A DNA stretch of 63,281 nucleotides, counting the filler, from Octopus bimaculoides (lineage: Eukaryota): the NCBI RefSeq assembly GCF_001194135.2. It is 6 parts of 5 records of this genome, joined end to end, with 100 filler letters (N's around TTAATTAATTAA, not from the genome) between each part and the next. Parts side by side here need not be neighbours in the genome. Positions count along the whole stretch, not along the records: positions 1 to 17,030 come from NC_068991.1; positions 17,131 to 41,421 come from NC_068982.1; positions 41,522 to 46,365 come from NC_068991.1; positions 46,466 to 54,506 come from NC_068993.1; positions 54,607 to 60,767 come from NC_068992.1; positions 60,868 to 63,281 come from NW_026391735.1. The stretch is one strand, 5' to 3'. The position numbers and the translations under genes are program-made. The notes under the pieces were generated by a model, which was not told the origin of the DNA, ran no database searches, and was given only the letters and a program-made list of their open reading frames with translations. How positions within the stretch are numbered: the first letter of the stretch is position 1; the number at the start of each line of letters is the position of its first letter. Below, one piece after another: positions 14,460 through 62,921 of the stretch.

Positions 14460-14660
14460 TTAATGTGACAGTCCCAGGAAAGGGAAGAATGCAGCTGCTA
14501 TTTAGCCCCAGGAAACACTGTTTCCAGTTAGCTGTGTGACACAAGCGTACTGGGTCCTTATGTTTTCCAACAGGGATGATAAGGCCCTCCAACCAGCAAA
14601 GCCAGCATCCAGAGACTAATTTCAGAGTCATTGCTCTTCATCAGTCTGGAGTAGCTTGGC
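14460..14660 (-). mobile_element. Short non-coding dispersed element carrying a hammerhead (family H1, copy 1)
   Basis: Shares TTTAGCCCCAGG...CCAG(C/T)T(G/A)GCT...GACAC...GTCCT with 37450, 45960 and 62650/62860; hammerhead on the opposite strand ~110-130 bp away. Confidence 0.75.
14608..14650 (-). ncRNA. Minimal type I hammerhead ribozyme with intact core
   Basis: Minus strand reads TCCAGA-CTGATGA-AGAG(CAATGA)CTCT-GAAA-TTAG-TC^TCTGGA: 6-bp stem I, CUGAUGA, 4-bp stem II, GAAA, minimal stem III and GUC cleavage triplet. Folded by eye. Confidence 0.85.
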
Positions 14661-15129
14661 TTGCTAGCTTAATTCTTTATTACAGGCACAAGGCCTAATT
14701 ACAGAGGGGTCATGCAAAGACATGCGAGAACATAAAACATATGAAGGATGAATGTGAAATGAATATAATTACAATGCAAATGAGCCGGTCATCTCGCTCC
14801 TGCTGCGAGATGAAACCGAGTATTCTTTTACCATTAACTTTTACATAACCTCTAGCCTCGCTCCGAGGTGAAACCGCAACTTCCCTTTTCACTTTTACCC
14901 TACCATTATAAACCTTTTAAACAAATGTTCATATAGTCCTTACTTCTTTTTTTCTTTTAAACCTGTTCATTCAACAGTTTCTTAATTTACTTTTTTTTTT
15001 TCCTTTTTTTTTCCTAAAAAGTTCAAACGATCATTTCTCTGTTACAGCTTTTACAAAATTATAATGACTTATCACTTCTGTCTCTCACACTGTCTTTCAA
15101 TTATGCACTCCTTTTAAGTTGGGGTGTCC

Positions 15130-15760
15130 TATCTCACTATAATTTTTCTTTTTGTTTGTGCTTTTCATGTTGTCTCTTTTTGTTTCTATTTTTTTGCTGT
15201 TTTATGAGTTTTGTATTTCCATCTCTAAGTCCGTGTGTTCTTGTATTTGTGTGTCTGTGTGTCCATTTGGCTGCAACTCTATGTGTTTTGTCTGTGTGTC
15301 TATGTCTTTAGGTCTCCGTAATTCTGGGTTGTCTTGTTTCTGGTCTGCATGACTCTGTCCTTCTAATTCCTTTGCTGGTACTTCCACTGGTAAATTTTCT
15401 CCATTTCTTGTCATGAGTTGAGTTTCTTCTTCCATTCCTTTACACTTCTTCACTTCCACTGTCATCGGTGACTTTCTTCTCTCTCTTTTCCTGGGTTTTA
15501 CCTCCGCCAAATTCCCACCATATTCTGTTCTCTGCTTCTGCTTTTTTTCCACCACTATATCTTCCTGAACACTCTCTTCCACCATTTCTACTGCTGCTCT
15601 AGGGCATTTCCTTCTCAGGTGCCCTCTTTCACCGCATCCGTAACATTTTGGGGTCTCCCCTCCAACATTATTTCCAGTTTTTCACTGTTTGGTAATTCCA
15701 CAGTTTCTGCCATTTTGTCGTAATATTCTGCATAATGATTCATATTTCCCATACCATAAA
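15130..15760 (-). mobile_element. Gag-like/LINE ORF1 fragment (L1/Tx1-like) with CCHC zinc knuckle and K/E-rich tail
   Basis: In frame and upstream of ORF 15202-15585: ETPKCYGCGERGHLRRKCPRAAVEMVEES (CX2CX4HX4C), preceded via a frameshift by KLEIMLEGRP. No RT recognised; clade uncertain. Confidence 0.6.
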
Positions 15761-15779
15761 CCGTCAACTAATTTAAAAT

Positions 15780-16620
15780 ATTTAAAACAATGCTTAAGCC
15801 CATGTTTCAGAAAAATTTAACTAAGCTATTCTTAACTCTTTGTAATTTTTGGTTAGAAACACTTCGAAGGTAGAGTAGACAATCATCACGATATAGACCT
15901 CCGTTGATGTTTGGGAATTGGTCAGCCACGTCATAAGGGATATATATACCAACAAAATTAGTGATTTGTGCTGAATCAGAACTTCCCATCATGACATCAA
16001 AACTGTCAGGTGTATCTTTCCTGACCCAGGGCTTGTTATTGAATTTAATTATAGATTTTCTGGCAGCTTTGTTGTGAGTGAGCCAGAGTGCCCTGTTGAG
16101 TATGATTGGGTTGATAGAGGAATAGAAACTAGAAATGTCAAACTGGATAAACTTAGTGTACTTCTTGTTATTAACAGAATTAAACCAGTCGACCACTTGG
16201 AATGAATTAGACCATAAATTAAGATTTAATTTTTTAACTAAGGTAGGAATTTATTTATCTAGAATATTTTTGCTAAGTACGCCGATGTCAGAGGTAGGAC
16301 AAAAAAGTCGTAAGGTTGGGTTATTAAAAAATTCTGTTTGTGATCTTTTAAAATAGAACGAGGTTGTTTAGGATCAAGAGGTTCTGTCTTCATCGGATGT
16401 GTTTGGTTTCATTCTTTCCCTGATGAGAAGATTGTATTGTTTTACACCATTTTATTCCTTCTGGAATAATACGAATGTTTTCTTCGAAAGATATGTTGGA
16501 AGTAACAAGATTTGAATAACACCTACGTTAACTCCATTTATTTATTTATCTATATGATACAAAAACATTTCACCTAAACCTGGAGTTTCTACCTTTATAA
16601 GTAGGTTGTTACATCCTTGG
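15780..16620 (-). mobile_element. Penelope-like RT fragment, family B
   Basis: FIQFDISSFYSSI, SFDVMMGSSDSAQITNFVGIY and GGLYRDDCLL; clearly homologous to 53050-54506. Confidence 0.85.
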
Positions 16621-60600: not shown

Positions 60601-61411
60601 ATCGAAATTGACCGTCATTATGTGTCAGTGCACAGAGAATGTTCACAATTGTTACTCCGATTTTGGATTCGAATTAAATAAAGAAATGAACTTACGCATA
60701 TGCATACATCAATGCATACCCTCACACTCGCACACACAGTTACACGAACAGACACACGAGAGAGGTANNNNNNNNNNNNNNNNNNNNNNNNNNNNNNNNN
60801 NNNNNNNNNNNTTAATTAATTAANNNNNNNNNNNNNNNNNNNNNNNNNNNNNNNNNNNNNNNNNNNNCCCCCCCCATCATCGCTTGACAACCAATGTTGG
60901 TGTGTATATATCCCTGTAATTTAGCAGTTTGGAAAAAGAGACTGATAGAATAAGTACTAGGCTTACAAAGAATAAGTCCTGGGGTTGATTTCTTTGACTA
61001 AAACATGCAAAAGAATAAAATAATATATATAGACAGACAGACAGACAGACAGAAAGTTAGAGAGATAGACAGACAAACAGATAGATAGCTACCTATTTAT
61101 TTGTGAATATCATTTTCATGTTTTATGCTTTTACCACCTGTAGCATCATTTTAGATTTGGTTGCAAAAAATATTGAAGGGAAAGAAATATTTTCTTTTGT
61201 GTATATATATCAATACATGCACACACTTTTATACAAGTAGACATGCAATCCCCTTCCCCTACACACATAGTCACATGCATACTCAAATACATATGTAGAC
61301 ACAAGTGTTTTTACTGTAACTGCAACATAATCTGTAGCAATATTTATGTCTATCCATATATCTATCTACTTATCTCTCTTTATACATATTTGTGCTTGTG
61401 TGTGTGTGTAT

Positions 61412-61745
61412 CATGGCACTCTGTCGGTTATGATGACATGAAATTAACGTGCAAGTGACTGAGCACTCCACAGACACGAGTACCCTTAACATAGTTCTCT
61501 AGGAGATTCAGCATGACAGTGTGGCAAGGCTGGCCCTTTGAAATGCAGGTACAACAGAAATTGGAAGAAATAGTGAGAGAAAGTTGTGGTGAAAGAGTAC
61601 AGCAGGGTTCACCACCACTCCCTGCTGGAGCCTTGTGGAGCTTTAGGTGTTTTTGCTCAATAAACACTCACAACACCCGGTCTGGGAATTGAAATCACGC
61701 TCCCATGACTGCAAGTTCGCTGCCCTAACCACTGGGCCATTGCAC
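61412..61745. mobile_element. Two abutting SINE fragments in opposite orientation
   Basis: Plus-strand tail GAAATTAACGTGCAAGTGACTGAGCACTCCACAGACAC; minus-strand tRNA-like head TGGAAGTGCAATGGCCCAGTGGTTAGGGCAGC...TTTCAATTCCCAGACC. Confidence 0.72.
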
Positions 61746-62602
61746 TTCCATGTGTGTAAATATATCTATATATATATATATATATATATAGATAGATATT
61801 ATTTACACATATATATGTACACACACACATATTTATCAATGGCACAATGGTAACTGGCATACTAAATGACAGCAAAACAGCAAAATCAGAGGCAAGAACA
61901 AGTTACATTTCTCCTATGATAGTTGCTGTAGATTAATATATGATCTGATCTTGATTTTTTTTCTCCCTCATCATTTCTCTGTTTCTATGATATGTTGGTG
62001 AATAAGTCTAGCCACGTCAGAGATAGCGTGTCTGTTTGCTTGATAGCAACATTGTGATAGACAAGCAATGATGTGGTACATGTGGATAACAAGGTTGTGA
62101 GAAGAGAAAGACTATCACTAATAGATATTGTATCTGATACTGAACCAATATGGTATTCTATTGATATTAATGCTGGCTGTTTGTTGAATGAGTTGTTAAT
62201 TTGGTTGGTTTACTCACTGGTTGACTGTTTGGTTGTTTGGTTGGCTGGCTGGCTGGTTGGCTTGGATATTTAGTTTGTTAGATGGCTGATTGGTTAGTTT
62301 CTTGAGTGGCTGGCTGGTTGTTGGTTTGTTTGTTTATTTGTTGGTTGGTTTGTTGGTCATTTTTTTCAGTGTTTGCATATGTGTGTATATGAGCATGGAT
62401 GTGTAAATGAGTGTACATTTCATTGCTTTTGCATCAATATGATGATTTTTTTTTTATCTCTTTCTATCTTTCTATCACTTTCCAAAGCCTAGATGGTAAA
62501 CATTGAAAGGGACCAGACAACTAAAACTAGGAAGATAAAGTTCATTTCCTGTTACTATCACTGAATTGTATTCATGAACAACAACAATCACTCAATAGTA
62601 AT

Positions 62603-62921
62603 GATTGTTTGCCAACATAACATGGCAGTCCTGGTTTAGGACTAATATTGCTGTAATTTAGCCCCAGGAGACATCGTCTCCTGCTGGCTATATGACATGG
62701 GGATTTGGCTGAACAATTATTGTGCTGATGAAGGGAAATAACTCAGGAATCACGATACACAGATATTGTTTTGAGCTGAGTGGGGGTGCTAGATTCCCTT
62801 GTTCAAAAATGTAAGGACACAGATCGTGTCATATAGCCAGCTGGAGATGATGTCTCCTGGGATTAAATTACTGCAACATTAGTCCTAAACCAGGACTGCC
62901 ATGTTATGTTGGCAAACAATC
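62603..62921. mobile_element. Family H1 element, copy 4, with inverted partial duplication (arms 62603-62698 and 62826-62921) enclosing a degenerate hammerhead
   Basis: About 7 mismatches in ~96 bp between arms. The spacer contains TGTG-CTGATGA-AGGG(AAATAA)CTCA-GGAA-TCACGA-TA^CACA (62721-62761). Confidence 0.82.

Follow-up and report, generated by a model that had tools for sequence, protein, structure and literature searches.

The closest described relatives of the element considered here are the non-LTR retrozymes (LTR, long terminal repeat) and the Penelope-like elements (PLEs). Non-LTR retrozymes, in which most canonical type I hammerhead motifs have been placed, have units of about 350-390 base pairs (bp) in mussel, 330/350 bp in axolotl and 220-240 bp in coral (Cervera and de la Pena 2020, PMC7229834). 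The canonical metazoan type I motif has a helix I of 6 bp, a helix II of 4 bp and a short palindromic helix III; the minimal hammerheads of PLEs are described with a helix II of 7-8 bp and a helix I of 4-5 bp (PMC4209133). In PLE insertions a truncated copy typically lies alongside in inverted orientation, and one end bears a tail of 30-40 bp (PMC8557442); the tail has been ascribed to two internal start sites of the reverse transcriptase (RT) (PMC11167929). Retrozymes have been argued to be non-autonomous PLEs, and dispersed monomers of them have been reported (Li, Clavereau and Pollet 2026, 10.64898/2026.07.22.740005); arguments over which enzyme mobilises them in animals still draw on co-occurrence and similarity of sequence (PMC7229834, PMC7761336, 10.64898/2026.07.22.740005). 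H1 is a family of dispersed elements found at four loci in a 63,281-nucleotide (nt) stretch of Octopus bimaculoides DNA (assembly GCF_001194135.2), hereafter the window, which joins six parts of five records and along which all positions are counted. H1 is a non-coding family of high copy number in which a canonical type I motif is conserved. It is probably a non-LTR retrozyme of about 350 nt, a non-autonomous Penelope derivative that is predicted to cleave itself and is likely to be reinserted by a Penelope-like RT/endonuclease.

The H1 family is real, abundant and, as judged from its sequence, ribozyme-bearing, with self-cleavage predicted. Contigs matching positions 37370-37780 number 3587 in a DNA run of one organism (A), 1953 in a DNA run of a second (B) and 32 in a presumed RNA run of a third (C). 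Summed depth, which is no copy number and serves here only for the order of abundance, is 51 in the left flank of copy 2, up to 2.6 million in the hairpin block and 135,000-213,000 over the hammerhead in run X1; copies of H1 are likely to number thousands to tens of thousands. The homology of copy 2 to the family runs from 37412 to about 37663. At 37412 the depth falls off sharply, and in X12 the loose ends at this point vary (agreement 0.53).

A conservation table for 37562-37720, made at a 2% threshold from contigs at least 80% alike (428 in X5 and 557 in X12), contains no variant row in either set for C3, U4, G5, A6, G8, A9, G12, A13, A14, A15.1 or U16.1. N7 differs in 65% (X5) and 37% (X12) of depth, and position 17 changes to A or U only. 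Loop II is UAAAUA in 93% and 89%, and the commonest change in helix I (28% and 25%) retains a U-G pair. This tally of pairs and loops covers 24 of the 37 table rows, the rest lying in the flank or being four small rows of helix II (37592, 37599 and 37601), none of them in the core. Because the table is unphased and limited to these contigs, it affords no formal covariation test. The strong conservation of the core across divergent subfamilies implies selection on the ribozyme. With thousands of contigs in the DNA runs of two organisms and an invariant core, the initial annotation of a high-copy, non-coding family with a conserved hammerhead is supported.

Within the window, layouts of the type I hammerhead occur on the other strand from TAGCCCCAGG, their cores starting at 14644 and 37609 (both minus) and at 62725 (plus); a relaxed scan of the window yielded no others. 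When a descriptor with a 14-nt helix II domain, set after the copies had been seen, was run against 200 shuffles, the strict count was 2 (0 in all shuffles) and the relaxed count 3 (shuffle mean 0.04, maximum 1, with none of the 200 reaching 3). Copy 1 has an intact core (14608..14650, minus) with a helix I of 6 bp plus a distal extension, a helix II of 4 bp with a 6-nt loop, and a helix III of 1-2 bp; its predicted cut is at 14614/14613. The core of copy 2 (37571..37615, minus) is likewise intact, with a helix I of 6 bp, a helix II of 3 bp plus a C.A opposition, a palindromic loop III and a predicted cut at 37577/37576. In copy 4 (62720-62762, plus) the motif is degenerate, GGAA replacing GAAA and A.A standing at the base of helix II. 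A perfect core together with a 4-bp helix II is found in copy 1 only, since copy 2 has C.A at the helix II base, and no hammerhead is recognisable in copy 3, which borders an N gap (45858-45957).

The hammerhead had initially been taken for a minimal one of the Penelope type, present on the opposite strand wherever sequence was available and of the same geometry throughout. The type I layout stands in three copies, beyond what shuffles give, but the core of copy 4 is mutated, copy 3 is without a hammerhead, and the helix II base is mismatched in copies 2 and 4. Moreover, the helix sizes of H1 are those of the canonical metazoan type I class instead of the minimal one (PMC4209133). Stem I does differ in sequence and yet pair in all three copies (6, 6 and 5 bp), as had been claimed. 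The co-variation proposed for stem II is visible in its middle pair, which is A-U, G-C and G-U across the three, but a shuffle control with only these three rows was not significant (344/500).

A hairpin block is common to all four loci. The motif TAGCCCCAGG is exact at 14503, 37470, 45994 (minus) and 62659, and with at most one mismatch it has eight matches in the window, compared with a shuffle mean of 0.87. A profile made from the H1 copies (nhmmer) recovered the four loci and one extra piece, the inverted arm beside copy 4, with nothing further in the window at expectation values (E) up to 10. The window copies have pairwise identities of 47-71% and a guanine-cytosine (GC) content of 40-46%, and the folds of copies 1 and 2 stand out from shuffles (z-scores of -6.3 and -5.8). 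The ends of copy 1, copy 2 and the copy 4 arm coincide to within a few bases. Because the hairpins are out of register, RNAalifold finds a weak consensus for the four blocks, of 10 pairs, 2 of them with double changes. Thus, the sharing of the block holds, but the extents first given to the loci were too short and are really 14391-14672, 37412-37663, 45959-46215 and 62596-62983. The list of shared motifs also needs amending: the exact TTTAGCCCCAGG near copy 4 belongs to a fifth, inverted partial copy (62603-62697) outside the span first assigned to copy 4, which itself has TTTAATCCCAGG, and both TGTGTCCT and CCAGCTGGCT are changed in copy 1.

Copy 1 (14391..14672, hammerhead sense minus), delimited by a profile match at 14674-14460, alignment and fold, belongs to a divergent subfamily. 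Its 5' boundary is approximate, its 3' end adjoins a TA-rich microsatellite, and its terminal hairpin contains a near-palindromic 45-bp insert (14417..14461) resembling the end of another repeat, seen also at 6145, 9497 and 40535-40560. Copy 2 (37412..37663, minus), delimited by depth profile, shared loose ends and fold, is near an abundant subfamily. On the 5' side of the hammerhead, loose ends are alike from run to run and from organism to organism, and copy 2 is therefore taken to be 5'-truncated at 37663. Neither copy 1 nor copy 2 has a convincing flanking duplication. The four window copies are old products and are likely to be dead.

The size of the unit is suggested by copy 3. Its 3' hairpin block (45959..46052, plus), whose 5' part is lost to the N gap, continues into a linker and the putative start of a next unit (46053..46215, plus) whose end lies close to the expected start of a hammerhead core (46216). 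Family sequence could be traced just 30 letters past 37663. A 22-nt motif from this hammerhead-upstream sequence (X5, X12, X22; beside helix I) has one match in the window, at 46183-46204 with 2 mismatches, equalled in 0/100 shuffles; the motif was picked after the likeness was noticed, and over the full 30 letters 25 agree by eye. The match lies downstream of the copy 3 hairpin block in the same orientation, and a second hairpin from the upstream sequence has a collinear counterpart at about 46130-46160, where about 20/31 letters agree by eye and one swap keeps a pair. The 3' block and the hammerhead-upstream region are in this way brought within about 130 nt of each other. The match and its orientation imply a head-to-tail junction and, from this single junction, a unit of about 353 nt with no open reading frame (ORF), which falls within the range of small units (about 150-450 nt); the continuation has stops in all three plus frames. 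As for tandem arrays, copy 3 provides one partial tandem, beside a gap. No head-to-tail joints are listed in the alignments of the DNA and RNA runs to copy 2, but with the linker of about 110 nt missing from copy 2, such joints would scarcely be visible in short reads and contigs. Two loose-end motifs are absent from the window within 3 mismatches. A possible relative of the copy 3 linker at 28353-28478 was weak (30/500 controls, E 7.8) and was dropped.

Copy 4, an insertion of 388 bp, combines a 5' arm in inverted orientation, a tail on one side only and a flanking duplication of 13 bp, features seen together at one of the four loci. From left to right it comprises a 13-bp direct repeat (62583..62595, plus), which is probably a target-site duplication; the inverted arm (62596..62697, minus), a second hairpin block about 92% identical to 62826-62928; the direct part, a truncated unit with the degenerate hammerhead (62698..62928, plus); a tail that extends about 55 nt past the mirror point of the arm (62929..62983, plus); and the right repeat (62984..62996, plus). 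A complex 13-mer was shared by 1/1107 control window pairs, namely the copy 4 locus itself. The first part of the tail resembles the family, since a pattern combining loose-end and copy 4 sequence, chosen post hoc, matches 62921-62940 only; the remainder of the tail aligns with the copy 3 linker no better than chance. The layout of copy 4 matches that described for Penelope-like insertions (PMC8557442, legend of Fig. 2).

The arm, tail and duplication of copy 4 thus lend structural support to the initial proposal of Penelope-like mobilisation, but the idea that RTs such as those in the window act as the movers is unsupported because no H1 copy is attached to the PLE remnants there. A decayed PLE at about 800-2200 (plus) has an RT, a C-terminal GIY-YIG region and a zinc-finger-like linker, the last of which we take to be Neptune-type; no hammerhead was found at its 3' end. 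The RT fragment at 1040-1375 had 76 relatives among 149 candidates, many with RT and GIY-YIG, and its top identity was 82% over 54% of the query, to an Octopus bimaculoides protein. Remnants that resemble Hydra-clade PLEs lie at 2785-3123 (plus), about 15807-16440 (minus) and 53050-54430 (plus); a first reading of these three as Naiad was dropped, as by eye they agree with the rows printed for Hydra-1_Obim. The PLE remnants of the window contain neither H1 sequence nor a hammerhead core with both stems. As to whether copies flank Penelope ORFs, a check proposed with the initial annotation, no ORF with RT and GIY-YIG stands beside the four loci (the 5' side of copy 3 being a gap). A full-length Penelope-like protein (P0004) whose record names a clam's bacterial gill symbiont as source is probably host contamination of that record.

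Family reads are present in 3/3 raw RNA runs (688, 53 and 29 reads), all from one study with ordinary complementary DNA (cDNA) libraries and 150-nt reads, about 6% of each run having been read. One read in all is at least 99% like copy 2, 66-94% of the reads continue into unlike sequence, and the strand ratios over the hammerhead conflict between runs. These reads fit passive transcription of many copies. The strand-specific read ends and circular-junction reads that had been suggested as a check were seen in none of the three runs, a weak blank because the libraries are ordinary cDNA ones read to 6% and reads of 150 nt cannot bridge the linker of about 110 nt that copy 2 lacks.

On our best reading, H1 in this window consists of dispersed fragments of a new member, from a cephalopod, of the non-LTR retrozyme or non-autonomous Penelope kind. 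A cycle of this sort would start with read-through transcription of a head-to-tail source locus into a multimer (inferred from PMC7229834). The hammerheads would cut the multimer to unit length, probably aided by pairing of dimers via the palindromic loop III, and the monomer would then be circularised by a host ligase, as has been shown for other retrozymes (also from PMC7229834). A Penelope-like enzyme would then prime cDNA internally, at a favoured position that lies about 165 nt downstream of the cut and immediately beyond the hairpin block; internal priming of the Penelope type is suggested by the copy 4 footprint together with the shared 3' end. Copying would usually end early and yield dispersed fragments with a common 3' end and, at times, an inverted arm and a tail.

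Several observations weigh against a self-cleaving retrozyme of this size. The unit length depends on one junction in one decayed copy, after which no hammerhead is recognisable (46216). In pairwise comparisons the downstream part of copy 3 is no more similar to copies 1, 2 and 4 than random window pieces are (252, 399 and 268 of 500 controls score as high), so that copy 3 is linked to the family through loose-end sequence alone. The arm, tail and duplication were observed once, and a 9-mer repeat at copy 4 (62594, 62970) makes its exact left border ambiguous. None of the four loci has two hammerheads, and the fold is not unusual for the direct part of copy 4 (z-score -1.1) or the copy 3 fragment (-0.65). 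The hairpin block is about 20-fold deeper than the hammerhead, which is not expected from long tandem arrays, and this block may be shared with other families. In the contig sets the basal pair of helix II is mostly C.A or A.A, with A-U at most 19% and 5%, a mismatch that may weaken ribozyme activity. In the three RNA runs (688, 53 and 29 reads), read ends do not pile up where the cut is predicted, joints are absent and the strand is inconsistent. Finally, in Xenopus, 8/9 dimers tested did not cleave, as reported in 10.64898/2026.07.22.740005.

Whether H1 is a retrozyme or a solo pseudo-LTR (pLTR) was left undecided in the initial annotation; the retrozyme is the better fit, given a canonical hammerhead and the unit of about 353 nt, devoid of an ORF, to which copy 3 points. 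It is rather unlikely that H1 is the pLTR at the 3' end of an autonomous, ORF-bearing PLE, with most copies heavily 5'-truncated and copy 3 a rare deletion derivative or two neighbouring insertions. Such an origin would suit the common 3' end with depth dropping toward the 5' side, the inverted arm and tail (at copy 4, 1/4 loci), the fact that family sequence could be traced just 30 letters past 37663, the abundance of octopus PLEs, with 336 recent insertions in 31 families (PMC13282606), and the reported frequency of truncated PLE ends that carry hammerheads (PMC4209133). However, PLE hammerheads are described as minimal (PMC4209133, PMC7761336) and that of H1 is canonical; the hammerhead published for Hydra-1_Obim differs in sequence and has 7 bp in helix II; no ORF adjoins any copy, and the PLE remnants of the window are without H1 sequence; and in copy 3 the hammerhead-upstream region follows the 3' block within about 130 nt.

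An ORF-free Penelope derivative could also move as a linear read-through RNA in the fashion of a short interspersed nuclear element (SINE), its hammerhead inherited and kept with no circle in the cycle, and the dispersal of the copies and the lack of read ends or joints in three RNA runs are consistent with this. So is the finding that the Anolis Poseidon protein inserts in vitro without any need of hammerhead cleavage (PMC11167929). Nevertheless, this possibility is considered improbable, for the selection implied by core conservation across divergent subfamilies argues against it, and the RNA blank carries little weight given the cDNA libraries, the 6% read and reads of 150 nt set against a linker of about 110 nt. 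Much the least credible alternative, already largely refuted, is that the hammerhead shape is incidental or the similarity due to chance. The absence of an Rfam match at gathering thresholds and the degenerate state of copy 4 would agree with it, but 0/200 shuffles attain the observed hammerhead count, and the core is invariant, with N7 variable, over hundreds of contigs.

Taken as a retrozyme, H1 resembles the non-LTR retrozymes described in PMC7229834 in its canonical type I hammerhead, its weak palindromic helix III, its inferred unit of about 353 nt and its lack of an ORF, and also in a GC content under 50%, self-paired RNA (copies 1 and 2) and a flanking duplication longer than 4 bp. Its basal mismatch in helix II recalls the U.U of axolotl HHR_Amex2 described there. 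Unlike them, H1 is known from dispersed sub-unit fragments and one partial tandem, and its cleavage and circles are predicted. It also has a preferred 3' end, an inverted arm and a tail, and the word "inverted" has 0 occurrences in the main text of PMC7229834; "octopus" and "cephalopod" likewise have 0 occurrences in the available text of that paper. With the retrozymes of 10.64898/2026.07.22.740005, whose monomers are described as evenly spread along chromosomes, H1 shares class and proposed origin. According to its main text, no mollusc was sampled in that study and tail or inverted-arm footprints were not used; "active" there denotes two consecutive hammerhead-bearing units, and no H1 locus of the window qualifies. 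The inverted 5' copy, one-sided tail and partial tandem are like those given for PLE pLTRs (PMC4209133, PMC8557442, PMC11167929), as are a 3' end well downstream of the hammerhead and microsatellite-rich surroundings. Unlike the pLTRs as described in these sources, H1 has no linked ORF at the window loci, a hammerhead that is canonical and not minimal (the 7-bp helix II of Hydra-1_Obim differs from that of H1), and a tail of about 55 nt as opposed to 30-40.

Searches for relatives were largely negative. In the window search H1 has no Rfam match at gathering thresholds, and the Rfam hammerhead is absent among the best 150 of 201 window matches with E up to 10, the matches listed being microsatellite-driven. 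Pattern scans for H1 relatives gave one match in metagenomes, GC-rich, coding-like and with no other H1 feature, and two in bacterial genomes, all taken as chance; viral contigs contained no H1 match for two patterns and no PLE locus. Full-text literature searches returned no octopus or cephalopod retrozyme in titles or abstracts, although supplements or repeat databases may list H1, perhaps as an unclassified SINE or a Penelope fragment. The window has no tRNA genes. Pattern matching found no B box on either strand of the four H1 copies, and the A box gave two lone matches; the tRNA-like head with both boxes that a tRNA-derived SINE would have is thus not seen in H1.

The window itself is AT-rich, with plentiful microsatellites and N gaps. 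The gaps at 17031-17130, 41422-41521, 46366-46465, 54507-54606 and 60768-60867 each consist of 44 N, a 12-base island and 44 N, the island likely being a scaffolding marker and not genome sequence. An exact 242-bp duplication (4682-4923 and 5013-5254) on either side of a 10-N gap is probably an assembly artefact. Other features include a broken mariner-type transposase (26-696, plus; PF01359) and a decayed long interspersed nuclear element (10519-13800, plus) with a CCCH zinc-finger frame, an apurinic/apyrimidinic (AP) endonuclease and an RT. A frame of 359 codons without interruption (26355-27434, minus) has a weak WH1 match (E 5e-4, under the Pfam cut-off) and resembles an intronless host gene among repeats. 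A 135-nt inverted repeat, 93% complementary, at 41967-42101 and 42504-42638 with a spacing of 402 nt could be a miniature inverted-repeat transposable element or another inverted insertion.

The class to which H1 would belong is already known from mussels, corals and salamanders; the useful feature of H1 is a Penelope footprint on an ORF-free unit. With H1, cephalopod genomes would gain a large ribozyme family that is apparently unannotated, and an abundant family with Penelope-type arms and tails would allow genome-wide counting and a test with purified enzyme. A bolder proposal, which is put forward tentatively, is that H1 is an octopus retrozyme of tens of thousands of copies whose insertions bear a Penelope fingerprint, that is, a fixed internal start, an inverted arm, a tail and a long target duplication. 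If this is true, the conserved hairpin block would be a recognition signal common to H1 and its autonomous partner, and the family would be evidence, direct and from the genome itself, that small ribozyme circles are copied by Penelope-like enzymes.

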